This document shows, piece after piece, positions 1 to 47,766 of a DNA stretch of 64,000 nucleotides. A program made the translations under genes and the position numbers. Positions within the stretch are counted from its first letter, which is position 1. Every line of letters starts with the position of its first letter. The notes under the pieces were generated by a model that was not told where the DNA came from, searched no databases, and worked only from the letters and a program-made list of their open reading frames with translations. Origin of the DNA: Pseudomonadota bacterium (GTDB taxonomy: Bacteria; Pseudomonadota; Gammaproteobacteria; Thiohalospirales; Thiohalospiraceae). Location of the stretch: contig JBNJEU010000005.1 in the NCBI GenBank assembly GCA_051746205.1, positions 1,344-65,343 of the forward strand, written 5' to 3'.

Positions 1-1654
1 TGGTCCCAAAGCCCTGCGTATTGATACCGAACAGCCAGAACTCGGCGGTGTCCGGGAACAGGTTCCATCCGGGGATGAACAGGAAGCCCTTGTAGATGAA
101 GATGTAGGCGAGGGTGGTGCCGAGGCCGGCGAGCATGCCGGCGACGGCGCCCTGGCGATTCATCCGCTTGTAGAAGATCCCCATCATCAGCACCGGGAAC
201 AGGGAGGAGGCGGCGAGCCCGAAGGCCAGTGCCACCACCTCCGCCGCGAAGCCGGGTGGATTGAGCCCCAGATAACCGGCCAGCAGGATGGCCAGCGTCA
301 TGGCGATCCGGCCCGCCCGGAGCTCGTGTCGTTCGCTGATGTTCGGCGCGATGATGCGCTTGAGCAGGTCATGCGAGATGGACGACGAGATCACCAGCAG
401 CAGCCCGGCCGCCGTGGAGAGCGCCGCCGCGATGCCGCCCGCCGCCACCAGGGCGATCACCCAGTTGGGCAGGTTGGCGATCTCCGGGTTGGCCAGCACC
501 ATGATGTCACGGTCCACTTCCAGCTCGTTGCCCTGCCAGCCGTACTCCTCCTCGGCGAAGGCGTTGAACTCCTCGTTACTGTCGTTGTAGAAGTTGATGC
601 GACCATCATCGGCCTTGTCCTCGTAGGTGATCAGCCCGGTATCCTGCCAGGTGCGCATCCACTCCGGCCGGTCCTCGTAGGCGAGGGTCGACTCCGTGGC
701 GATCTCGTCACCGGTGTGGACCGTCTTCACCAGGTTGTAGATGGACAGGGCACCGACCGCCGGGGCGGTGGTGTAGAGGATGGCGATGAAGACCAGCGCC
801 CAGCCGGCCGACTTCCGGGCGTCACGCACCCGCGGCACGGTGAAGAAGCGGACGATGACGTGGGGCAGACCGGCGGTGCCGATCATCAGCGCCATGGTCA
901 GCAGGAACATGTTCAGCGTGTCGAACGCGCTGTTGGTGGTGTACTCGGCGAAACCGATGTCCACCATCACCTGGTCCAGCCGATCCAGCATGAACTGCCC
1001 GCTGCCGTCGGCGACGGTGGCGCCGAGGCCGACCTGCGGCAGCAGCCAGCCGGTGAGCTGGAAGGAGATGAAGATCGCCGGCACGGTGTAGGCGAAGATC
1101 ATCACCACGTACTGGGCGATCTGGGTGTAGGTGATGCCCTTCATGCCGCCGAGCACGGTGTAGCTGAAGACCACCGCCATGCCGACGACCATGCCCCAGA
1201 ACAGCTCGATCTCCAGGAAACGGGAGAAGGCGATGGAGACGCCGCGCATCTGCCCGATGATGTAGGTGATGGAGATCACCAGCAGGGCAATGACCGCCAC
1301 GGTGCGGGCCGTCTGCGAGTAGAACCGGTCACCGATGAAGTCCGGCACCGTGAACTTGCCGAACTTGCGCAGGTACGGTGCCAGCAGCAGGGCCAGCAGC
1401 ACATAGCCGCCGGTCCAGCCCATCAGATAGGTCGAACCGCTGTAGCCCATGAAGGCGATGAGACCGGCCATGGAGATGAACGAGGCCGCAGACATCCAGT
1501 CGGCCGCCGTGGCCATGCCGTTGGCGACCGGGTGGATGCCCTTGCTGGCGACGTAGAACTCGCTGGTGGAGCTGGCGCGCGACCAGATGGCGATCCCGAT
1601 GTAGAGCGCGAAGGACGCGCCCACGAACAGCCAGATGAGAGTTTGAAGTTCCAT
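1..1654 (-). CDS. actP: Sodium:solute symporter, ActP (cation/acetate symporter)-like; 3' end runs off the window
   Basis: Read from ATG at 1654: MELQTLIWLFVGASFALYIGIAIWSRASSTSEFYVA...GMATAADWMSAASF, later MIGTAGLPHVIVRFFTVP, which are ActP-subfamily motifs. Preceded by DUF4212. Substrate not proven. Confidence 0.8.
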   Translation of the reverse strand, partial: MELQTLIWLFVGASFALYIGIAIWSRASSTSEFYVASKGIHPVANGMATAADWMSAASFISMAGLIAFMGYSGSTYLMGWTGGYVLLALLLAPYLRKFGKFTVPDFIGDRFYSQTARTVAVIALLVISITYIIGQMRGVSIAFSRFLEIELFWGMVVGMAVVFSYTVLGGMKGITYTQIAQYVVMIFAYTVPAIFISFQLTGWLLPQVGLGATVADGSGQFMLDRLDQVMVDIGFAEYTTNSAFDTLNMFLLTMALMIGTAGLPHVIVRFFTVPRVRDARKSAGWALVFIAILYTTAPAVGALSIYNLVKTVHTGDEIATESTLAYEDRPEWMRTWQDTGLITYEDKADDGRINFYNDSNEEFNAFAEEEYGWQGNELEVDRDIMVLANPEIANLPNWVIALVAAGGIAAALSTAAGLLLVISSSISHDLLKRIIAPNISERHELRAGRIAMTLAILLAGYLGLNPPGFAAEVVALAFGLAASSLFPVLMMGIFYKRMNRQGAVAGMLAGLGTTLAYIFIYKGFLFIPGWNLFPDTAEFWLFGINTQGFGT

Positions 1655-1663
1655 GGCGGCCCC

Positions 1664-1930
1664 TTAGTCCTCGTAGACGTTGAACTTGCGATCGAGCTGA
1701 TTCATCTTCCACGCGTAGAAGAAGATCAGGACGATGAACGTGAAGATGGAACCCTGCTGGGCGAACCAGAAGCCCAGCGGATAGCCGCCGAGACTGATGG
1801 TGTTCAGCGCGTCCACCAGAAGGATCCCGAAGCCGAAGGACACGATGAACCATACGACGAGACAGCCCAGCAGAAGGCGGACGTTCGCCTTCCAGTAGGC
1901 CGTCGCCTGTTCATTGTCGATTGTTGTCAT
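1664..1930 (-). CDS. DUF4212 protein, putative small subunit of the solute:sodium symporter
   Basis: 88 aa with two hydrophobic helices and the motif GGYPLGFWFAQQGSI. Strong SD (GAGGA). Directly upstream of the symporter. Confidence 0.9.
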   Translation of the reverse strand: MTTIDNEQATAYWKANVRLLLGCLVVWFIVSFGFGILLVDALNTISLGGYPLGFWFAQQGSIFTFIVLIFFYAWKMNQLDRKFNVYED

Positions 1931-2038
1931 TCCTCTCTCTCCTCTTATGGTCTTGATGTCGTCCCGGAGGACAAACCGTCTTCCCCGTTTTACCGCCGGG
2001 GCGGCGGTGTTCCATCGGCTCCCTGCCGGTTGGAAGTC

Positions 2039-3925
2039 CTAGAGTTGATAGGCCAGGGCGATGCGCGACTGCAGTTTGCGCGCCTGTCGGAACGCCTCCT
2101 TGAGGATGCGGCGGTCCAGTTCGTTGAGGTCGTCCGGGTCGATCCAGTTGTCCAGCGGTTCCCCGGCGCCGGCCTGGCGGCGATGGTGCTGCATGCGCAG
2201 CCACTGGATGAATTCGTAGGCGTCGCGCCAGGCGGCGACGTCCTCGGCCGGTGCCTCGCCGGTGTCGGTCATGGCCTGCAGCCGATCGAGGGTGTTGGTG
2301 GCTGATGACCGGAGGGTCAGTGCCTGCAACCGGGCGGCGTCAACGAACGGGGTCAGGCCCTGGACCTTCAGATCGAGACCGCTGCGGCCCTGGGCGTCGT
2401 GGCTGAGCTTGAAATCGCGGAACAGCCCGAGCGGTGGGCGGTTGCGCAGCACGCTTTCGGCCAGCTGGCGGCGGAACCGATCGTTCTGCGCGGTGGCCCC
2501 GAGCAGCCAGTCACGCAACTCCGTGGCGGGATGTTCTTCGCCCCAGAGCACCCGGAAATCGAAGAAGACGGTGGCATTGAGAAGGTGCTGCGGCGTGCCC
2601 TGTTCCAGCCAGCGCTCGAAACGCGCGCGCCATTCCGACGTGCTCAGGCAGCATTCCGGGTTCGAGGCCATGATGTTGCCGGGACAGAGGGGGAAGCCGA
2701 CCCGCGCCAGGTCATGGTTGATGGCCTCCGCCAGAGAGAGCAGCTCGCGGCGCTGTTCCTCGAGGTCGATCCCGGCCACCGGCTCGAACAGGATGCCGTT
2801 GTCCTGATCGGTCTTGAGGGTCTGTTCGCCCCGCCCCTCGCTGCCGAAGGCAAGCCATGTGAAGGGGGTTCGCGGCCTGCCGTGGTCGGCGAGGTTCAGC
2901 CGGATCACCGCCCGGGTGACGTGGTCGTTGAGGGTCGCGATGAGCCGCGCGCTGGCGGCGGCGCCGGTGCCCTGGGCCAGCAGCTGGTCGATGAGCCGGT
3001 GCAGGTCGCCCTGCAGAGCGATCAGGGTCTCCATGTCCGGGGCATCGTCGATGGCACGGGCGAGGCCGACCACGCTCACCGAGCGCGTGCTGAACAGGGC
3101 CTCCTCGTTGACCACCGCCAGCAGGGCACCGTTGTCCACCACGCAGACATGCTCGCGCCCGTGCTCGGCCATGGCGCGGGCGGCGACCCAGGCCGGCTGA
3201 TCCGCCTCCAGGAGCAGCGGGTCTTCCTCCATCACCTCGGCCAGCGCGGTCCCCAGTGGGCGTTGCGGGAGGACCAGGCGATGGATGACCGCGTGCGTGG
3301 TCAGCAGGCCGCGCGGGGCGCCGGTCTCGTCCACGACCGCGACCGCACCCATGGGAATGCTCGCCAGCCGTTGCAGCGCTTCGGAGAGCGGCGCGCTATG
3401 CGCGACCATGGTGGTGTCGGGGGAGACCAGCTCGCCCAGCGGGGCCTGCAACGAGGTGGAGAAGGTGGCCATGCCCGGCTCTTCGCGGCTGTGGCGGCGC
3501 AGGGCCTGGTCCAGCAGGTTGGCCAGCCGGCGGCCGCAGAAGTCCTGGAAGAGCGGGCTGCGTTCACGCAGGGCGTCGAAATCGTCGCGCGGCAGCTCGA
3601 AGCAGAAGGTGTCCTCCACGGCCCGGTGGCGTGTGTGGACCGGCCGGCGGGAAAGCAGGGCGCCGATGGGAAAGCATTCGCCGGTGACCAGCTCCCAGGC
3701 CTCGGCGTCGCCACCGGCCTCGCCGCGCACGCGACCCTGCTTGATGATGTAGAAGAGTTCCGCCTCGCCCTGTTCCGGAGCGGTCAGCAGCTCGCCTCGC
3801 GGGAAGAAGGTCAGTTTCAGCCGCCGTGCCAGCCACTGGAGATCGGCTCCGCTCATGTCGGCGAAGGGAGCGTGGCGGCGGAGGAAGTCCACCGTGGGCT
3901 GGAGGGGGTCGCTCTCCGTCATCAT
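2039..3925 (-). CDS. cNMP-binding + CBS pair + DUF294 putative nucleotidyltransferase
   Basis: N-terminal cNMP-like domain (FFPRGELL...FYIIKQGRV), central CBS repeats, NTase motif AFGSEGRGEQTLKTDQDNG, DUF294_C region (DLKVQGLTPFVDAAR). Confidence 0.88.
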   Translation of the reverse strand: MMTESDPLQPTVDFLRRHAPFADMSGADLQWLARRLKLTFFPRGELLTAPEQGEAELFYIIKQGRVRGEAGGDAEAWELVTGECFPIGALLSRRPVHTRHRAVEDTFCFELPRDDFDALRERSPLFQDFCGRRLANLLDQALRRHSREEPGMATFSTSLQAPLGELVSPDTTMVAHSAPLSEALQRLASIPMGAVAVVDETGAPRGLLTTHAVIHRLVLPQRPLGTALAEVMEEDPLLLEADQPAWVAARAMAEHGREHVCVVDNGALLAVVNEEALFSTRSVSVVGLARAIDDAPDMETLIALQGDLHRLIDQLLAQGTGAAASARLIATLNDHVTRAVIRLNLADHGRPRTPFTWLAFGSEGRGEQTLKTDQDNGILFEPVAGIDLEEQRRELLSLAEAINHDLARVGFPLCPGNIMASNPECCLSTSEWRARFERWLEQGTPQHLLNATVFFDFRVLWGEEHPATELRDWLLGATAQNDRFRRQLAESVLRNRPPLGLFRDFKLSHDAQGRSGLDLKVQGLTPFVDAARLQALTLRSSATNTLDRLQAMTDTGEAPAEDVAAWRDAYEFIQWLRMQHHRRQAGAGEPLDNWIDPDDLNELDRRILKEAFRQARKLQSRIALAYQL

Positions 3926-3967
3926 CGGCTCGTCGGGTGGCTGCCGGGCATGGCCACGAACGACAAG

Positions 3968-3982
3968 GCAGGATGTGTGCCA
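3968..3982 (-). promoter_or_regulatory. Sigma-54 (-24/-12) promoter for the DUF294 gene
   Basis: Minus strand reads TGGCAC-ACATC-CTGC, with GG-N10-GC spacing matching TGGCAC-N5-TTGC; ends 43 bp upstream of the ATG at 3925. Confidence 0.75.
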
Positions 3983-4031
3983 GAAATTACTTCTCGTTTT
4001 TCAGTAGGTTGAGGAGGGGTTCCCCGGGCAT

Positions 4032-4071
4032 CGTTACGCAGGGTAACATCGAGGTGTTACGGAATGTAACA
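4032..4071. promoter_or_regulatory. Two tandem palindromic enhancer sites, putative CbrB UAS
   Basis: CGTTAC-GCAGG-GTAACA at 4032-4048 and TGTTAC-GGAAT-GTAACA at 4055-4071; about 85 and 105 bp upstream of the predicted sigma-54 start site. Confidence 0.7.
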
Positions 4072-4079
4072 GTACGGTT

Positions 4080-4952
4080 CTACTTGTTACGCCGTTCGAC
4101 TTCCAGCTTGTGGATGTAACGCTGGATCCGGGATTCGGTCCCCCCTCGCAGGTTGTGGAAGGCGCAACCCACGCGGCGAACGGTGCGACTGTTGGTCAGG
4201 GTGGTGTCGAAGACGCCGCGGATCTCCAGATTCAGATGCATCGTGCCTTGTTCCGGCAGATAGAGCTCGGCGCCCTCGACGACCTGGAAGCGTTCCACTT
4301 CGATGGCGCACTCGTGATCCACCAGCCCGATCCCGCCGATTGAAATGTCCTGTACATCCAGTGTGTGCTGCTCGCCGTGAATGTCGCTAATGGTGCAGAT
4401 CGCCTTGTCTTCGATGCCTTGAGGAACGGGCGCGCGAAAGGCCTCGCGACGCTGCAGGCGCAGCACTTCGGTCGGGAGCGGCATTAGAAAGACGGGTTCG
4501 CCCTTGAGGCGAGCGGCCTGGATGTCCGAGGCAACGAACTGGGTGGTGGCGTGGTTGTGCTTGGTGTCGAACAGGACGTGATCGGCTTCCAGCAGGCGCT
4601 GATTCGCCTTCTCGTCGCCCGAACGTTCCATGATCAGCATGTCGCGCTTGGGATCGACATGGATGATCGAAGTCAGCAGGAAATGCCCGGTCTCGTCACT
4701 GTAATAGGCGGAGAACTGGTGGGCTTCCTTCTGCAGCTGGCGCAGCAGGCTGACCCGCTCCATCTGGGAGCGAATCATGAACTTTTCATAGTCGGGGTCG
4801 CCGACCAGGCGCAGGGGCCGCTGTTCCTCCTCGTTCGAGGAGTCGTCCGGCGCCGTCCCTTTCGGGTCTGCGGTCCCTTGCACCGCCCCGTCCAGGTCGT
4901 TCTGCTCCTCGGGGCTGTTGTCGAGATCCGTTGGTTCGACCATAGGTGTCAT
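4080..4952 (-). CDS. ycgR: Flagellar brake protein YcgR (YcgR-N + PilZ)
   Basis: PilZ motifs QRREAFR (RxxxR) and DISIGG (DxSxxG) intact; C-terminal ESRIQRYIHKLEVERR. Confidence 0.85.
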   Translation of the reverse strand: MTPMVEPTDLDNSPEEQNDLDGAVQGTADPKGTAPDDSSNEEEQRPLRLVGDPDYEKFMIRSQMERVSLLRQLQKEAHQFSAYYSDETGHFLLTSIIHVDPKRDMLIMERSGDEKANQRLLEADHVLFDTKHNHATTQFVASDIQAARLKGEPVFLMPLPTEVLRLQRREAFRAPVPQGIEDKAICTISDIHGEQHTLDVQDISIGGIGLVDHECAIEVERFQVVEGAELYLPEQGTMHLNLEIRGVFDTTLTNSRTVRRVGCAFHNLRGGTESRIQRYIHKLEVERRNK

Positions 4953-4970: not shown

Positions 4971-4997
4971 TGATCGGACGTGGCGTGGTTCGGTTCA
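4971..4997 (-). promoter_or_regulatory. Possible sigma-28 (FliA) promoter of ycgR
   Basis: Minus strand TGAA-N15-TCCGATCA versus consensus TAAA-N15-GCCGATAA; ycgR is FliA-dependent in enterics. Confidence 0.45.
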
Positions 4998-5069
4998 GGA
5001 GTTCACGCGGATGACGCCAATGTTACCGAAAGCCGCGCCCGTTGGATACCATCCGACCATTCTCGGGAA

Positions 5070-6389
5070 TCAGGCCCGGCGTGGGATCCCGAGCCGCTGG
5101 CGTCGTTCCCAGAGGGTCTTGCGGCTGATCCCCAGACGGCGTGCCAGCTCGGTTTCGGTGAGCTGGCCCTCGTGTTCGCGCACGAAATGGACAAAATAGT
5201 CGTCGAGAGAGAGCTCGTCGAGGCTCGGTTGTCGGCTCCGAGCCGTGGTCAGGCCCAGATCGTCGGTGTCCAGTGTCTGGCCGTCGGCGAGGATCACGGC
5301 CCGTTCCAGGGTGTTCTCCAGCTCGCGCACATTGCCCGGCCACGGGTGTGCCGCGATGGTTGCCAGTGCGGAGTCGGTGAGTGTCATCGGCGGGCGGTTG
5401 AGGCGGTGACAGGATCGGTCGAGGAGTTCGCGCGCCAGCGCGGGGACGTCGTCGCCGCGTTCGCGCAATGGCGGCAGACGGATCTCCATGACGTGGAGGC
5501 GATAGTAGAGGTCCTCGCGGAAGTCGCCGGCGGCCACCAGCGACTGGAGGTCGCGATGGGTGGCCGCCAGCAGGCGCACGTCCACGTGCCGGGCCTGGTT
5601 CGCCCCGACCCGACGCACCTCGCCGGCCTGGAGGACCCGCAGTAGCCGCGCCTGAGCCTCCAGCGGCAATTCGCCGATCTCGTCGAGGAAGAGGCTGCCG
5701 CCCTCGGCCGCCTCCACCAGTCCGTGGTGGCGACTGTCGGCGCCGGTGAACGCCCCCTTTTCATGGCCGAAGAGTTCCGACTCGATGAGGCCGGAGGGGA
5801 TCGCCGCGCAGTTGACGTTGATCAAGGGTCCCTGCCTGCGTGGACTCTGTTCGTGGATGGCGCGTGCCACCAGTTCCTTTCCGGTCCCGGATTCGCCGAG
5901 CACCAGCACGGTGGTGTCGGTGGGCGCGACGCGCCGGATGCGATCGAAGACCGTCTGCATCGCGGGGCTCTCGCCGATCATGCCCGAGGTGGGTCGATGA
6001 CGCGCCAGCTCACCACGCAGCGCGGCGTTCTCCCGTTCCAGCTCGCCCTGGCGCAGGGTGCGTTCCACCAGGAGGGTCAGTTCGTCGTGGTCGAACGGTT
6101 TGGCGATGTAGTCCACCGCTCCCTCCTTCATCGACTCCACCGCCGAGCGCACACTGGCGTAGCTCGTGAGGACGATGACCGGGGCCTCGGTACGGGGGAT
6201 GATCGCGGTGCCCTGACCATCGGGCAGGCGCAAGTCGGTGAGGACCAGATCGAAGGTGGCGTCGGTCAGCGCCGCCTCAGCGGTCGCCCGATCCGCCACC
6301 GCAGTGACGCGATGGCCGGCCCGTTCCAGAACCCGGACCAGGCTGTCGCGGGTGATGGCCTCGTCCTCGATGATCAGCAGATGGCTCAT
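5070..6389 (-). CDS. cbrB: Sigma-54-dependent response regulator CbrB (REC-AAA+-HTH)
   Basis: REC (LTDLRLP), Walker A GESGTGKE, GAFTGA loop, and C-terminal LSLDDYFVHFVREH...TETELARRLGISRKTLWERRQRLGIPR typical of CbrB. Confidence 0.88.
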   Translation of the reverse strand: MSHLLIIEDEAITRDSLVRVLERAGHRVTAVADRATAEAALTDATFDLVLTDLRLPDGQGTAIIPRTEAPVIVLTSYASVRSAVESMKEGAVDYIAKPFDHDELTLLVERTLRQGELERENAALRGELARHRPTSGMIGESPAMQTVFDRIRRVAPTDTTVLVLGESGTGKELVARAIHEQSPRRQGPLINVNCAAIPSGLIESELFGHEKGAFTGADSRHHGLVEAAEGGSLFLDEIGELPLEAQARLLRVLQAGEVRRVGANQARHVDVRLLAATHRDLQSLVAAGDFREDLYYRLHVMEIRLPPLRERGDDVPALARELLDRSCHRLNRPPMTLTDSALATIAAHPWPGNVRELENTLERAVILADGQTLDTDDLGLTTARSRQPSLDELSLDDYFVHFVREHEGQLTETELARRLGISRKTLWERRQRLGIPRRA

Positions 6390-9334
6390 GGCATCGTCTC
6401 CATCGCGGTGGTCTGTGGGGCCCCGCTGGCGGCCGGCAGGCTCAGGTGCGCGCGCGTGCCCTCACCGGGGCGGCTCTCGAACTGGATGGTGCCGTCGTGG
6501 GCCTGGATGATGGCATAGACCACCGCCAGTCCGATTCCGGTCCCCTGTCCCGGTGGCTTGGTGGTGAAAAAGGGCTCGAACAGACGCGACATGTCCTCGG
6601 GGGCGATGCCGCCGCCCTCGTCGAAGATGTCCAGCTCGATGCCGGCGGCGGTCCGTTCGGCGGTGACCTCGATGATTCCGCCGTCGGGGGAGGCGTCGGC
6701 GGCGTTGTTGAGCAGGTTGACCAGGACCTGCAGCAGGCGCGGTTCGTCACCGTGGAGGTAGAATCCCTGCGGGATGTCGCGCTGGAAGGCGACCCGGCGT
6801 CCGGCATGGGACAGACTCACCAGCCGGACCGCTTCCTCCACCAGCGGTGCCACGGCCACGGGCGTCGGGTGGTGCCCCTCCCGATCGCCGCCGTGGCTGA
6901 AACGCAGCAGCGACTGAACAATGGCGCCGATCCGCTCGGTCTGGTCGCGGATCTGGCGCAGTCCGTCGCGGCAGCCCTCCGGAGCGGTGGTGTCCAGATC
7001 CTGGGCGAGGCAGGCGATGTTGGTGACCGGGTTGCCGATCTCGTGGGCCACCCCGGCGGCGAGTCGACCGATGGAGGCGAGGCGTTCGTTGTGGGCCAGT
7101 TCGGCCTCGAGACTCTGGAGGTCGGTGAGATCCTCCAACAGCAGCACCGTGCCGGCGCCCTCCACCTCGATGGCGGCCTTGTGCAGGTTGAACCAGCGGG
7201 TCCGGCCGTTATGGGCCACCTGGACCTTGCGCAGCGACTCCTCGTCGGCGCGCAGGAAGCCGCTGAGCAGTCCCCCCCAGGGGGGGCGCAGTTCGGCCAG
7301 AGGACGTCCCACCACGTCATCGGAGGCGAGGCCGGTGAGCGCTTCCAGCGCCTGGTTCCAGTGGATGACCTCGCCGTCGCCACTGATGGTCGCGGCACCC
7401 AGCGGCAGATCGTGCAGCACCTGCCGATGGTAGCGCCGGAGGGCGTCCAGCTGCACCGAGAGGCCCCGGAGTTCGGTGTGGGAATCCTCCAGACGCGCCT
7501 CGATGTGGCGCACGGTGTCGGCCAGCGCAATCTGGGCGCGGGGCTCCAGATGCAGACGCTCGTCGACGATCATCCGTGCCAGTAGTGGCCCCATCAGACC
7601 GGAGAGATTGCGCTCGATCTGGCGACGCAGCCGGGTCAGTGCCTCCGGCTGGTCCTCGTCGGGGGAAAGGTCCAGATCCTTCAGGGCGCGCCGGACCTCG
7701 CGGCGTGCTACATCCTCGCCCACGGCCTCGGCGAGGCGGTCGGCGAACTGGCCAGCGGAGGTGGCGGTGACCACGCCGATTTCCTCGGTCTCGCCGGAGC
7801 GCAGACAGAGACGGGCGCTCTGTTCCTCGGCGGCGGTGGGGCGGGTCAGCAGGCTCAACAGGATGAACAGGGTGCCGTTGACCAACAGGGTCGCGGCGGT
7901 GGCCACGAACCAGGGATCGGCGTCCGCCAGCCCGAGGGCCGCCTGGGCGTCGAAACCCGTGGTCAGGAGTCCGGCGTTTTCCAGCAGCGGGAGCAACAGC
8001 AGTACGGCCCAGACCGTAGCGCCGCCGAGCAGTCCGCCGACAAATCCGTGCCGGGTCGCCCGGGCCCAGAAGAGCAGACCGATGATCCCGGGCAGGAACT
8101 GGGCCACGGCGACGAAGGAGATGAGCCCCATCTCCACCAGCCCCTCGCGATGCTCCAGCAGCCGATAGAAGGCGTAGCCGGCCAGAATGATCAGGGCGAT
8201 GACCACGCGTCGACTCCAGGTCAGCCAGCGGTAGAGGTTACCGCTCTCGGCCGGGCGCTGGGGCAGGCTGGCCGGCAGCAACAGGTGGTTCATCACCATC
8301 GCCGCCAGGGCCAGAGTGGTGACGATGACCATGGCGCTGGCGGCCGAGACGCCACCCATGAAGGCGGCGAGGGTCAGCAGGTCATTGCCCTGGGAGAGCG
8401 GCAGCACCAGCACGTGGTAGTCCGGCGACCCCGGTGCCTCGGTGGCCTGGCCGGCCCAGAGGATCGGCGGGATGGCCAGATTGAGCAACAACAGAAACAG
8501 CGGGAAGCCCCAGGCTGCGGTTCGCAGCGCCCGTTCCGACGGCGCCTCGGCGAAGGCCATGTGGAACTGGCGCGGCAGCAGGAACGCGGCGGCAAAGGCG
8601 AGCAGCAGCAGGCTGGTCCAGGCGCCGTCGTGCATCGGCGTGTACATCGCCTCCAGCGCTTGGGGGTTGGCCTCCAGCCATTCGCCGAGACCGAGCGGTC
8701 CGCCGAAGACTCCGAACAGGGCGAACAGGCCCACCGCCAGCAGCGTCGACAGTTTGACCACCGACTCGAAGGCGACGGCCATGACCAGCCCGTCGTGCCG
8801 CTCGCCGGGGGCAACATGGCGCGTGCCGAACAGGGTGGCGAACAGGACGAGCAGGGCACAGAAGCCCAGCGCCAGGGTCTGTGGCGGCGTCTTCTGGGTC
8901 AGTACCTGGGCCGATTCGGTCACCGCTCGGATCTGCAAAGCCAGATAGGGCAGGGTCCCGACGAGCATGAACAGAGTCACGACCACCCCGGCCAGCTGAC
9001 TGCGGTAGCGGAAGGTGAACAGATCGGCCAGGGAGGTGAGCTGATGCTCCCGGGTCAGGCGCAGGATGGGCAGCAGCAGAACCGGCGTCAGCAGAAAGAC
9101 GAGGGTGGGGCCCAGATAGATGGTCAGGAAATTGAAGCCGTGATCCGCGGCGTAGCCGACGCTGCCGTAGAAGCTCCAGGTGGTGGCGTAGACTCCCAGG
9201 GCGAGGATGTAGATCACCGGATGCTGGACCAGTCGGGGGGGCAGCAGTCCCCGATCGGTGACATGGGCGATCACGAACAGCAGCGACAGGTAGCCGAAGG
9301 CCACTGCGAAGAGCAGGGCGACATCAACGGTCAT
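6386..9334 (-). CDS. cbrA: CbrA sensor histidine kinase (SLC5 transporter domain, PAS, HisKA, HATPase)
   Basis: Start set at MTVDVALL. Multi-TM SLC5-like N-terminus (LALGVYATTWSFYGSVG), H-box GVAHEIGNP, G-box GTGIGL. 4-bp overlap with cbrB. Confidence 0.88.
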   Translation of the reverse strand: MTVDVALLFAVAFGYLSLLFVIAHVTDRGLLPPRLVQHPVIYILALGVYATTWSFYGSVGYAADHGFNFLTIYLGPTLVFLLTPVLLLPILRLTREHQLTSLADLFTFRYRSQLAGVVVTLFMLVGTLPYLALQIRAVTESAQVLTQKTPPQTLALGFCALLVLFATLFGTRHVAPGERHDGLVMAVAFESVVKLSTLLAVGLFALFGVFGGPLGLGEWLEANPQALEAMYTPMHDGAWTSLLLLAFAAAFLLPRQFHMAFAEAPSERALRTAAWGFPLFLLLLNLAIPPILWAGQATEAPGSPDYHVLVLPLSQGNDLLTLAAFMGGVSAASAMVIVTTLALAAMVMNHLLLPASLPQRPAESGNLYRWLTWSRRVVIALIILAGYAFYRLLEHREGLVEMGLISFVAVAQFLPGIIGLLFWARATRHGFVGGLLGGATVWAVLLLLPLLENAGLLTTGFDAQAALGLADADPWFVATAATLLVNGTLFILLSLLTRPTAAEEQSARLCLRSGETEEIGVVTATSAGQFADRLAEAVGEDVARREVRRALKDLDLSPDEDQPEALTRLRRQIERNLSGLMGPLLARMIVDERLHLEPRAQIALADTVRHIEARLEDSHTELRGLSVQLDALRRYHRQVLHDLPLGAATISGDGEVIHWNQALEALTGLASDDVVGRPLAELRPPWGGLLSGFLRADEESLRKVQVAHNGRTRWFNLHKAAIEVEGAGTVLLLEDLTDLQSLEAELAHNERLASIGRLAAGVAHEIGNPVTNIACLAQDLDTTAPEGCRDGLRQIRDQTERIGAIVQSLLRFSHGGDREGHHPTPVAVAPLVEEAVRLVSLSHAGRRVAFQRDIPQGFYLHGDEPRLLQVLVNLLNNAADASPDGGIIEVTAERTAAGIELDIFDEGGGIAPEDMSRLFEPFFTTKPPGQGTGIGLAVVYAIIQAHDGTIQFESRPGEGTRAHLSLPAASGAPQTTAMETMP

Positions 9335-9530
9335 GATCGCCTCGCTGGCGCAGCAGCAGGTAGCCGGCCGCGAGCAGGCCACCCCAGATCAGGTAGGGCG
9401 TGAACCAGCCGGCGGCGGGGCGCGCCCATAACAGCAGCAGCGGCGAGGCGAACAGGGCCAGGCCGAGGAGCAGGGCGATGAGCGCACGGTCGGTGCGTTC
9501 CGGACGGGGGGCCGGCATGGCGTCTACCAT
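9324..9530 (-). CDS. cbrX: Small membrane protein overlapping the cbrA start, CbrX-like
   Basis: 68 aa with two hydrophobic segments and pattern LFASP...W...GWFTPYLIW resembling the Pseudomonas ORF between gluQ and cbrA; overlaps cbrA ATG by 11 bp. Confidence 0.65.
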   Translation of the reverse strand: MVDAMPAPRPERTDRALIALLLGLALFASPLLLLWARPAAGWFTPYLIWGGLLAAGYLLLRQRGDHDR

Positions 9531-9541
9531 GGCTGACGGTG

Positions 9542-9558
9542 TGTTACGGAAAGTAACA
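9542..9558. promoter_or_regulatory. Palindrome TGTTAC-GGAAA-GTAACA, putative CbrB autoregulatory site
   Basis: Matches the 4055-4071 site at 16 of 17 bases; 11 bp upstream of the cbrX ATG. Confidence 0.65.
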
Positions 9559-9593: not shown

Positions 9594-10499
9594 TCAGTCG
9601 AGAACTGCTCGGGTTCCGCACGGTATCCGTGACGGTTCCCAGGCCGAAACGGCCCACGGCAGCAGCTCGTCGGGCCCGGCACCATGGAGCTCGGCCGGCG
9701 GATCCTGACCGAGGACGTCCAGGGCTTGCCAGAGTGGTCGTCCGGGGATGGTGTCGTCCACCGGGGGGGCGCCGGTCTGCTTGCTCAGCTTTTCGCCGGC
9801 GGCATTGACCGCCACCGGCAGGTGGCGATAGCCGGGGGTCGACAGACCGAGGGCGTTCTGGAGCAGGATCTGGCGCGCGGTCGAGTCGAGCAGATCGGCG
9901 CCGCGCACCACCTCGGTGATCCCGGCGTCGGCGTCGTCCACCACCACGGCCAGTTGGTAGGCGAACAGGCCATCGGCCCGACGGATGGTGAAATCGCCCA
10001 CTTCGGCCGTGACATCCTGACGTTGGGCCCCCAGGGTGGCGTCGGTGAAATGCACCGGTGGCAGGCCCTGGACCAGGAACCGCCAGGAACGCGCCGGCCG
10101 GCCGCCGAGCCCGGCGCGGCAGGTGCCGGGATAGACGCCGCGCGGCAACCCCATGGCCTCGGCAGCGGCGCGTTCCTCGGCGCGGCTGCAGGCGCAGGGG
10201 TAGGCTCGTTGCAGCTCGATAAGCCGGTCCAGGGCGTGCTGGTAATGTGCTTTGCGGGCACTCTGCCGGACCACCGGCCCGTCCCAGGTCAGCCCGAAGC
10301 GTTCCAGACCGCGCAGGATGGCATCGGCAGCCCCGGGCACGGTGCGCGGTTCATCCAGATCCTCCATGCGCACGAGCCATTCACCACCCGCGCGCCGAAC
10401 GGGCAGATAACTGCCCAGTGCGGCGACCAGGGAGCCGAAATGGAGGGGGCCGGTGGGGGACGGGGCGAAGCGGCCACGACAGACGGGAGCCGGTGTCAT
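9594..10499 (-). CDS. gluQ: Glutamyl-Q tRNA(Asp) synthetase
   Basis: Start set at MTPAPVCRGRFAPSPTGPLHFGS. KLSKQ motif, YQLAVVVDD, no anticodon domain, downstream of dksA. Confidence 0.93.
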   Translation of the reverse strand: MTPAPVCRGRFAPSPTGPLHFGSLVAALGSYLPVRRAGGEWLVRMEDLDEPRTVPGAADAILRGLERFGLTWDGPVVRQSARKAHYQHALDRLIELQRAYPCACSRAEERAAAEAMGLPRGVYPGTCRAGLGGRPARSWRFLVQGLPPVHFTDATLGAQRQDVTAEVGDFTIRRADGLFAYQLAVVVDDADAGITEVVRGADLLDSTARQILLQNALGLSTPGYRHLPVAVNAAGEKLSKQTGAPPVDDTIPGRPLWQALDVLGQDPPAELHGAGPDELLPWAVSAWEPSRIPCGTRAVLD

Positions 10500-10522
10500 G
10501 GGACCGTTTCGCCCGGATGCGC

Positions 10523-10963
10523 TCAGCCGCGCTGGCGTTCGCGCACCTCGTCGAGGGTCTTGCAGTCGATGCAGAGGGTAGCGGTTGGGCGCGCCTCGAG
10601 GCGACGGATCCCGATCTCGACGCCGCACGCCTCGCAGTAGCCATAGTCGCCTTCTTCCAGCTTGTTCAGCGCTTCGTCGATCTTGCCGATCAGTTTGCGC
10701 TCCCGATCGCGGGTCCGCAGTTCCATGGTGAACTCGGATTCCTGACTGGCGCGGTCGTTGGGGTCGGGGAAGTTGGCCGCCTCGTCCTGCATGTGGTGAA
10801 CGGTCCGATCCACCTCCTCCATCAGTTCCCGCTTCCAGCTCTGAAGGATGTTGCGGAAGTGTTCTTCCTGCTGCGGGTTCATGTACTCCTCGCCCGCCTC
10901 TTCCTGATAGGGGGCGATCCCGTTCACCAGGTTTTCTGCATCCTTCTTGTCGGCTTCTGCCAT
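10523..10963 (-). CDS. dksA: RNA polymerase-binding transcription factor DksA
   Basis: DPNDRASQE coiled-coil tip and C4 zinc finger CEACG...CIDC. Confidence 0.97.
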   Translation of the reverse strand: MAEADKKDAENLVNGIAPYQEEAGEEYMNPQQEEHFRNILQSWKRELMEEVDRTVHHMQDEAANFPDPNDRASQESEFTMELRTRDRERKLIGKIDEALNKLEEGDYGYCEACGVEIGIRRLEARPTATLCIDCKTLDEVRERQRG

Positions 10964-47637: not shown

Positions 47638-47687
47638 GTTTAGGCAAATCACTCCCACCATGACGCCCGTGCGGCCCGTGGGGGAAA

Positions 47688-47766
47688 TACACACACGCAC
47701 CGATAGAAACGCCCGCCAGGGTGCTCCGCAAGGGGTTGGTGGTCGGGGTGCGTGGAGGCTCAACCC
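47688..47766 (+). ncRNA. rpsB 5' leader (t44 / S2 autoregulatory element)
   Basis: ACACACACGCACCG...GGGTGCTCC...GGGGTTGGT...GGTGCGTGGAGGCTCAACCC matches the conserved blocks of the gammaproteobacterial rpsB leader. Confidence 0.8.

Follow-up and report, generated by a model that had tools for sequence, protein, structure and literature searches.

Genes and control elements of the locus

The DNA analysed here is a 64,000-nucleotide stretch (the window) of contig JBNJEU010000005.1 from a member of the Thiohalospiraceae, Gammaproteobacteria (assembly GCA_051746205.1). It carries a sensor kinase together with a response regulator related to CbrA and CbrB of Pseudomonas and, on the same strand, the first genes of a predicted carboxylate uptake operon, preceded by two palindromic sites (dyads) and a sigma-54 promoter. 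All genes and elements of the locus are read on the minus strand, and the coordinates are window positions.

10523..10963, minus strand: dksA, a 146-aa open reading frame (ORF), the start of the conserved dksA-gluQ-cbrX-cbrA-cbrB block
9594..10500, minus strand: gluQ, tRNA glutamyl-Q34 synthetase (NCBIfam GluQRS, 372 bits; start codon approximate)
9542..9558, no strand: third dyad, TGTTACTTTCCGTAACA, between gluQ and cbrX-cbrA, predicted CbrB autoregulatory operator
9324..9530, minus strand: cbrX-like small ORF, 68 aa, hydrophobic/membrane, overlapping the cbrA ATG (9334) in another frame
6386..9334, minus strand: cbrA orthologue, 982 aa, SLC5-STAC-PAS-HisKA-HATPase (Pfam PAS, HisKA and HATPase_c; PDB match)
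5070..6389, minus strand: cbrB orthologue, 439 aa, receiver (REC), sigma-54 AAA+ (GAFTGA) and Fis-type helix-turn-helix (HTH) domains (Pfam, NCBIfam)
4080..4952, minus strand: pilZ, PilZN-PilZ protein (YcgR-like), 290 aa (Pfam PilZN, 2.5e-22; PilZ, 4.9e-7)
4055..4071, no strand: putative upstream activating sequence 1 (UAS1), 17-bp dyad TGTTACATTCCGTAACA, centre at about -107, kept in 12 loci
4032..4048, no strand: UAS2, 17-bp dyad TGTTACCCTGCGTAACG, centre at about -84, kept in 12 loci
3999..4011, minus strand: weak site resembling that of integration host factor (IHF), CAACCTACTGAAA, 2 mismatches to YAANNNNTTGATW, within the A/T-rich portion of the spacer
3968..3982, minus strand: sigma-54 -24/-12 promoter TGGCACacatcCTGC, predicted start near 3956
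2039..3925, minus strand: DUF294a, with cNMP-binding, CBS, DUF294 nucleotidyltransferase and DUF294_C domains (Pfam), predicted first gene of the operon
1664..1930, minus strand: DUF4212, symporter small subunit (Pfam PF13937, TIGR03647)
1..1654, minus strand: VC_2705-family sodium/solute symporter (SSS), large subunit (TIGR03648), extending beyond the window edge

The promoter, of the -24/-12 type, reads TGGCACACATCCTGC from 3982 to 3968 on the minus strand. An earlier note on this DNA had described it at 3968-3982, together with two palindromes of the TGTTAC-N5-GTAACA type with centres 23 bp apart; both the promoter and the palindromes were found at those places, upstream of DUF294a. When the GC of the promoter is set at -13/-12, transcription is predicted to start near 3956. 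Dyads and promoter lie in the 154-bp gap between pilZ and DUF294a. The pilZ gene (4952..4080), which stands between cbrB and the dyads, had been overlooked in the earlier note; it probably lies outside the CbrB-driven operon. The spacer between the dyads and the promoter (3983-4031) is 51% A+T and its promoter-proximal 27 nt are 67% A+T.

In the window the promoter motif TGGCAC-N5-YTGC was found 3 times, where 0.41 matches were expected, and the dyad motif GTTAC-N5-GTAAC was also found 3 times, compared with 0.00 in shuffles. The genome-wide search for TGTTAC-N5-GTAACA proposed in the earlier note was run as GTTAC-N5-GTAAC and returned only 3 sites in the 2.06-Mb, 67% GC genome, two before DUF294a and one before cbrX, all of them at this locus. 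The number expected by chance, calculated from base composition, is about 0.5 per genome, and when the GTTAC and GTAAC arms were set at each of the other spacings between 0 and 20, the whole genome gave no match. When 2 mismatches were allowed, five extra genome sites appeared (one with 1 mismatch, four with 2), compared with 23 in a reversed-sequence control.

The promoter had been thought to point into DUF294, DUF4212 and actP. The first two assignments were borne out, but the transporter belongs to the VC_2705 family (TIGR03648, 792 bits against a cut-off of 321 bits) and the operon is predicted to be longer, ending in acs. Identification as ActP was rejected on two grounds: the score of 147 bits on the ActP model TIGR02711 is far below its cut-off of 1099 bits, and the partner gene is DUF4212, whereas that of ActP is yjcH (DUF485). 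Beyond the window the cluster continues with DUF294b, then an RNase T-like exonuclease (RNase_T) gene and then acs (contigs C5 and C8). The assembly breaks inside DUF294b; because the two contig ends hold its two halves (C5:1-1193 and C8:53116-53886), C8 is taken to continue C5. The same DUF294b/RNase_T/acs run is found on a single contig in Thiohalomonas. For homologous DUF4212/SSS pairs, mutants have shown that the genes are required for the use of lactate or D-alanine (bioRxiv 10.1101/072470).

Conservation of the dyads and promoter

Eight genomes, belonging to two genera, have the gene order gluQ-cbrX-cbrA-cbrB-...-pilZ-DUF294a-DUF4212-SSS-DUF294b in common, and the DUF294a orthologues of eight related genomes are 51-87% identical. 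Two dyads precede DUF294a in 12 loci from at least 5 families, including Thiohalomonas denitrificans. In all 12 the GTTAC and GTAAC arms are conserved, the N5 spacers vary freely, the dyad centres are 19-24 bp apart, and a -24/-12 element comes next. Between the second dyad and the -24 GG the distance is either 59-63 or 71-72 bp. The two classes differ by about one helical turn, a phasing characteristic of a face-of-the-helix constraint. The promoter core TGGCAY-N5-YTG is kept in 9 of the 12 loci; each of the other three has one -24 base changed (TGGTAC, CGGCAC or GGGCAC).

The geometry, a pair of 17-bp dyads spaced by about two helical turns and some 80-110 bp 5' of a -24/-12 element, resembles that of the tandem enhancers of the NtrC/DctD type. 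The phasing, kept in one-helical-turn steps, is a further likeness, and the recognition word, the sensor and the regulon are different.

The palindromes start 9 nt past the pilZ stop and each can fold into a 5- or 6-bp hairpin, so that a pilZ terminator or attenuator, or even chance repeats, might be suspected instead of protein sites. The hairpins are weak, however, with predicted energies of -3.5 and -4.7 kcal/mol, and the terminator scan called none at the dyads. The stems are conserved letter by letter and show no compensating pair changes among the 12 loci, while the loop letters vary freely. Moreover, dyads are also present where no pilZ gene precedes them (loci L039, L087 and L088), and the low chance expectation and lack of matches at other spacings argue against fortuitous repeats. 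The weak hairpins, the missing terminator and the lack of compensating changes indicate that the dyads are protein sites, and an origin as RNA structures or by chance is extremely improbable.

At locus L073 (genome G179), about 160-330 bp 5' of DUF294a, some 17 tandem 8-mers, AAGTGGCA/AAGTGACA, are followed by TTGAAAC repeats immediately before the two dyads. In genus g1 a different conserved palindrome, TCGATAAATTATCGA / CGGTAAATTACCG, lies just 3' of cbrB, in the cbrB-pilZ gap (L021, L027); the version in the window is TTTCGGTAACATTGG (4990-5045). A GTAACA half-site at 5026..5021, in the 117-bp cbrB-pilZ gap of the window, was not counted as a CbrB site, since in relatives it belongs to this other palindrome, CGGTAAATTACCG.

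CbrA, CbrB, CbrX and crcZ

CbrA residues 21-608 match PDB entry 10ed_A (histidine kinase, 606 aa) with E=1e-167; we take this chain for the SLC5-STAC structure of CbrA in preprint PMC13022988. Pfam Response_reg was not found in CbrA, i.e. the kinase is without a receiver domain. With the nearby SSS transporter it shares only 23% identity (E=0.008). Over their full length, CbrA and CbrB are 47-48% and 54-55% identical, respectively, to the proteins of Pseudomonadaceae loci that bear crcZ, and CbrX is 29-33% identical to the small ORF 5' of Pseudomonadaceae cbrA. CbrX has been described previously (PMC8871633, PMC13022988), and ORFs of 64-66 aa were called at the cbrX position in L039-L041. The dksA-gluQ-cbrX-cbrA-cbrB synteny is common to the window genome and the Pseudomonadaceae. 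The dksA product is 73% identical to Thiohalomonas DksA, and the gene at the equivalent position is annotated DksA in L039 and L040; an in-frame search found gluQ directly 5' of cbrX-cbrA in 29 loci, one Pseudomonadaceae locus included. When 40 CbrA orthologues were placed in one tree with 9 other SLC5 kinases, the CbrA clade had 100% support, with CrbS-like proteins as the outgroup. The names borne by close homologues point to a genome in or near Thiohalospira, with Thiohalomonas, Inmirania and a Solemya symbiont among its relatives; one NCBI record of a close homologue is already named CbrB. Judged by these comparisons, the kinase and the regulator are true orthologues of CbrA and CbrB.

The HTH of CbrB, LGISRKTLWERRQRLGIPR, is near-invariant from the window genome to the Pseudomonadaceae and follows the pattern LSLxDYF..FV..H..TETELARxLGISRKxLWERRQRLGIPR; none of the other activators of the genome has such an HTH. 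The subsites of Pseudomonas CbrB, TGTTAC and GTAACA, were defined by mutagenesis and footprinting (PMC6296734, PMC8871633), and the dyad half-sites are identical to these hexamers, which fits the near-invariant HTH. From the presence and conservation of the hexamers, we infer that the CbrB of the window recognises TGTTAC/GTAACA.

The strongest argument that the product of cbrB binds the dyads is their co-occurrence with both cbrXAB and the transporter cluster. Ten CbrAB genomes in which the cluster lies away from cbrAB were scanned for dyads. Five of these have only 2-4 dyads each, and one is always found before cbrX. Two more precede DUF4212-SSS-DUF294b-RNaseT(-acs) in Inmirania thermothiophila, G230 and G401, and in G343 and a Solemya symbiont one precedes DUF294a, accompanied in the symbiont by the promoter TGGCACaacccTTGC. 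Sites away from the cluster number one in G401 and two in G343. Genome scans of two Pseudomonadaceae genomes, of G024 and of G290 found no dyads.

A regulator other than CbrB, be it a different sigma-54 activator or a repressor, might instead occupy the dyads, with cbrB nearby by coincidence. The genome encodes at least 8 other sigma-54 activators, and cbrB is split from the sites by pilZ and, in G002, by a further 3.3-kb insertion. Nevertheless, a dyad stays with cbrX-cbrA-cbrB in 28 loci, also where the cluster is elsewhere, the half-site is the hexamer known from Pseudomonas CbrB, and the conserved HTH is unique to CbrB among the activators of the genome. Binding by a protein other than CbrB is therefore considered very unlikely. 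The insertion in G002 (L022) contains a long ORF on the opposite strand and separates cbrB from pilZ, with the DUF294a dyads and promoter intact.

The dyad before cbrX is the one kept in these 28 CbrAB loci. Thirteen of these have an extended -10 (TGnTAnnnT) 4-6 nt downstream of the dyad, with the cbrX ATG 6-7 nt further on. This spacing predicts a leaderless cbrX message with CbrB positioned over the -35 zone, and autoregulation is thus likely to be repression. The genus of the window has no recognisable -10 at the cbrX dyad, so that for this organism the sign of autoregulation is extrapolated from the other loci. A dyad before cbrX was not found in the Pseudomonadaceae.

The earlier note had seen no crcZ after cbrB and had proposed a search for crc and crcZ elsewhere. 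An Rfam search of the window and a search of the whole genome with RF01675 gave no match to crcZ. The genome also has no Crc-like paralogue: NCBIfam is without a Crc-specific model, and the sole relative of a Pseudomonad query protein, which we take to be Crc, is the XthA gene (26% identity). The gene for Hfq is encoded in the genome. Neither a second SLC5 kinase nor a CrbS-type kinase was found in the genome. In a class sample of 401 genomes, crcZ scored above the model cut-off in only 2, both of one family; these are taken as Pseudomonadaceae because their loci read dksA-gluQ-cbrX-cbrA-cbrB-crcZ-pcnB. The 570-bp cbrB-pilZ gap of the sister genus was ruled out as a small RNA locus, since it holds a conserved 145-aa ORF. 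A 145-aa protein without a Pfam family is found directly 3' of cbrB in Thiohalomonas (L039:11413-11850), in the sister genus g2 and in at least 5 other families; the genome of the window has a homologue (51% identity) elsewhere, on contig C43:11672-12100.

Proposed circuit, known systems and evolution

Taken together, the orthology of CbrB, the identity of its hexamers, the conservation of the enhancer and the dyads before unlinked clusters support the suggestion of the earlier note that a CbrB-type activator drives the cluster directly. On this sequence evidence it is probable that CbrAB is locally wired here, CbrB acting on the DUF294a...acs operon through the dyads and the sigma-54 promoter with no crcZ involved. 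CbrA, probably complexed with the small CbrX peptide, would phosphorylate CbrB, and CbrB dimers would occupy the two 17-bp dyads TGTTAC-N5-GTAACA at about -107 and -84. The bound dimers would form an active AAA+ ring able to open the TGGCAC-N5-CTGC promoter through DNA looping, possibly with the help of IHF; rpoN and the IHF alpha gene are both encoded in the genome. The predicted transcript comprises DUF294a, DUF4212, the VC_2705-type Na+/monocarboxylate symporter, DUF294b, the RNase T-like exonuclease and acetyl-CoA synthetase, by which acetate or a similar small carboxylate may be taken up and activated. The third dyad, before cbrX, would provide autoregulation, most likely repression.

Several observations weigh against this account. 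The IHF-like site is weak and is considered only possible because its best match has 2 mismatches. The -12 element departs from the TTGC consensus, being CTGC in the window and, in the sister genus, TTGA or TTGT. Pfam SSF and STAC gave no match on the CbrA N-terminus at E<=1, and the SLC5 assignment rests on the PDB match. The extent of the operon is uncertain: several genomes start the cluster at DUF4212, and the 108-bp gap between DUF294a and DUF4212 (1931-2038) contains a GC-rich hairpin, CCGCCGccccGGCGG, with no T tail, which could be an internal attenuator or a processing site. At several loci acs directly 3' of cbrB has no dyads before it, and in Inmirania thermothiophila (L040) a second SLC5 kinase lies on the far side of acs from cbrB; adjacency alone is thus no proof of acs control. 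Finally, Thiohalospira is described as an obligate chemolithoautotroph, in which the role of an acetate operon is puzzling.

The second kinase of Inmirania thermothiophila (L040:13451-16784) is of the SLC5 type and 914 aa long, with a 66-aa CbrX-like ORF upstream and a stand-alone receiver gene. This third type of SLC5 kinase occurs together with CbrA in about 9 of the sampled genomes.

The closest known system is CbrAB-crcZ of Pseudomonas and Azotobacter, which serves Crc/Hfq carbon catabolite control. It shares with the window the orthologous cbrX, cbrA and cbrB genes, the dksA-gluQ context, the use of sigma-54 and the TGTTAC/GTAACA hexamers. At loci L087, L088 and L095 the enhancer and promoter lie just 3' of cbrB, as they do for PcrcZ. 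In Pseudomonas, CbrB is reported to be monomeric and to recognise dispersed, non-palindromic subsites, TGTTAC-N12-14-GTAACA-N15-19-GTAACA (PMC6296734). The gap of 17 nt between the right half-sites here fits the R1-N15-19-R2 spacing and equals the R1-N17-R2 of PcrcZ. There are also differences: the window has compact 17-bp dyads, a kind that binds dimers, crcZ and Crc are missing, and the predicted target is a protein-coding operon. Pseudomonad CbrB has a 12-aa insert in the linker between REC and AAA+ and a longer AAA+-HTH linker, whereas the CbrB of the window is without the insert and its AAA+-HTH linker is shorter. Two targets are predicted here, compared with 61 found by chromatin immunoprecipitation (ChIP) in P. 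putida. Of the nine residues of the CbrA histidine pocket (Y51, S53, W55, A56, F71, Y75, K196, F248 and F406), six are kept; positions 53, 56 and 248 are T, S and A in the window. Outside the Pseudomonadaceae these positions are T, S or T, and A or S in 36-37 of 38 orthologues, while S53, A56 and F248 are found in the Pseudomonadaceae and in G024.

In function the predicted circuit also resembles CrbS/CrbR (MxtR/ErdR) of Vibrio and Pseudomonas, the targets of which are acs, an SSS carboxylate transporter and the DUF294 (cNMP/CBS nucleotidyltransferase) gene with its paired RNase T-like exonuclease gene (PMC5715377, PMC9927547). The likeness, which extends to the SLC5-STAC kinase and to the gene content of the regulon, is one of function only. 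A C-terminal receiver makes CrbS a hybrid kinase, and its regulator CrbR belongs to the LuxR-type sigma-70 activators and has a motif of its own, whereas the kinase here has no receiver and is paired with a sigma-54 activator of the NtrC type. In the 400-genome sample, tallied by hand, CrbS-length kinases co-occur with CbrA only in the Pseudomonadaceae. A similar parallel is offered by RpuS/RpuR-MctP of Sinorhizobium fredii (PMC9100948), in which an SLC5/STAC kinase system controls an SSS monocarboxylate (pyruvate) symporter. That system is alphaproteobacterial, its kinase belongs to another subfamily, and, as far as the text of PMC9100948 shows, its regulator is not a sigma-54 activator.

CbrAB has been called 'exclusive' or 'unique' to the Pseudomonadaceae, and its activating signal has been said to be unknown (PMC6296734, PMC8871633). 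Of the 400 genomes sampled, about 40 have full-length CbrA orthologues, and these genomes span more than 25 families; their presence in about a tenth of the class sample contradicts the stated restriction. At 24 of the 40 loci, acs or the cluster is found downstream of cbrB at a distance of up to about 10 kb, and direct wiring would be common outside Pseudomonas. In the CbrA tree the next relatives of the Pseudomonadaceae are G024 and then L095, which has two dyads and acs directly 3' of cbrB. The nearest relative, G024, was considered as an intermediate and rejected: it has neither crcZ nor dyads, and a protein gene follows cbrB.

The suggestion that the direct wiring is possibly ancestral gained support, as the Pseudomonadaceae nest inside the CbrA tree and crcZ is confined to them in the 401-genome sample. 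With acs-linked members on all three deep branches as well, direct wiring is probably ancestral and crcZ derived, as far as a quick, single-protein tree can indicate. Alternatively, the direct wiring could be real but derived, the crcZ circuit or a third arrangement being ancestral and CbrAB having been recruited later to the acetate cluster in lineages of sulfur oxidisers. The tree is rooted on a long outgroup branch, its deepest nodes are unresolved, gene transfer of the whole locus is possible, and the linked cluster is missing at 14 of the 40 loci. However, the Pseudomonadaceae nest with 99% support beside the acs-linked L095, where the dyads come right after cbrB, and CbrA is spread far more widely than the one family with crcZ above the cut-off. 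In addition, some loci scored as unlinked have dyads before the cluster elsewhere in the genome. A derived origin of the direct wiring is accordingly judged unlikely.

If direct wiring is the older state, a fuller history can be put forward as a tentative possibility. CbrAB may have started out as a sigma-54 switch of local reach that served an operon for monocarboxylate uptake and acetyl-CoA synthetase, a role it would still have in many Gammaproteobacteria. In the Pseudomonadaceae, CrbS/R would have taken over these genes, and the enhancer and promoter after cbrB would have come to drive crcZ. CbrB could have lost compact-dyad (dimer) binding through the linker insertions, and the CbrA pocket may have shifted to histidine. 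Were this history correct, the signal of CbrA should relate to small-carboxylate or acetyl-CoA status, and PcrcZ would be the positional descendant of an acetate-operon promoter. It would provide a testable account of how a local regulator turned global, with a structural correlate in compact dyads and a short linker as opposed to dispersed subsites and a monomeric CbrB. The predicted regulon in the organism of the window is tiny, cbrXAB and one carboxylate uptake/acs operon, and may offer a simple model system for CbrA signalling and the CbrX-CbrA complex. The proposed circuit would also assign a regulator to the widespread DUF294/DUF4212/VC_2705 cluster.

The pilZ gene adjoins DUF294a in two genera, g1 and g2, and likewise in G179, where it is duplicated. 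Its product has intact RRxxxR and DxSxxG motifs, and the linkage with DUF294a hints that carboxylate sensing may be tied to cyclic di-GMP or flagellar control. Elsewhere in the window, Rfam t44 RNA (RF00127) was matched at 47672-47764 on the plus strand with 61.7 bits, an ordinary match that has no bearing on the CbrAB locus.

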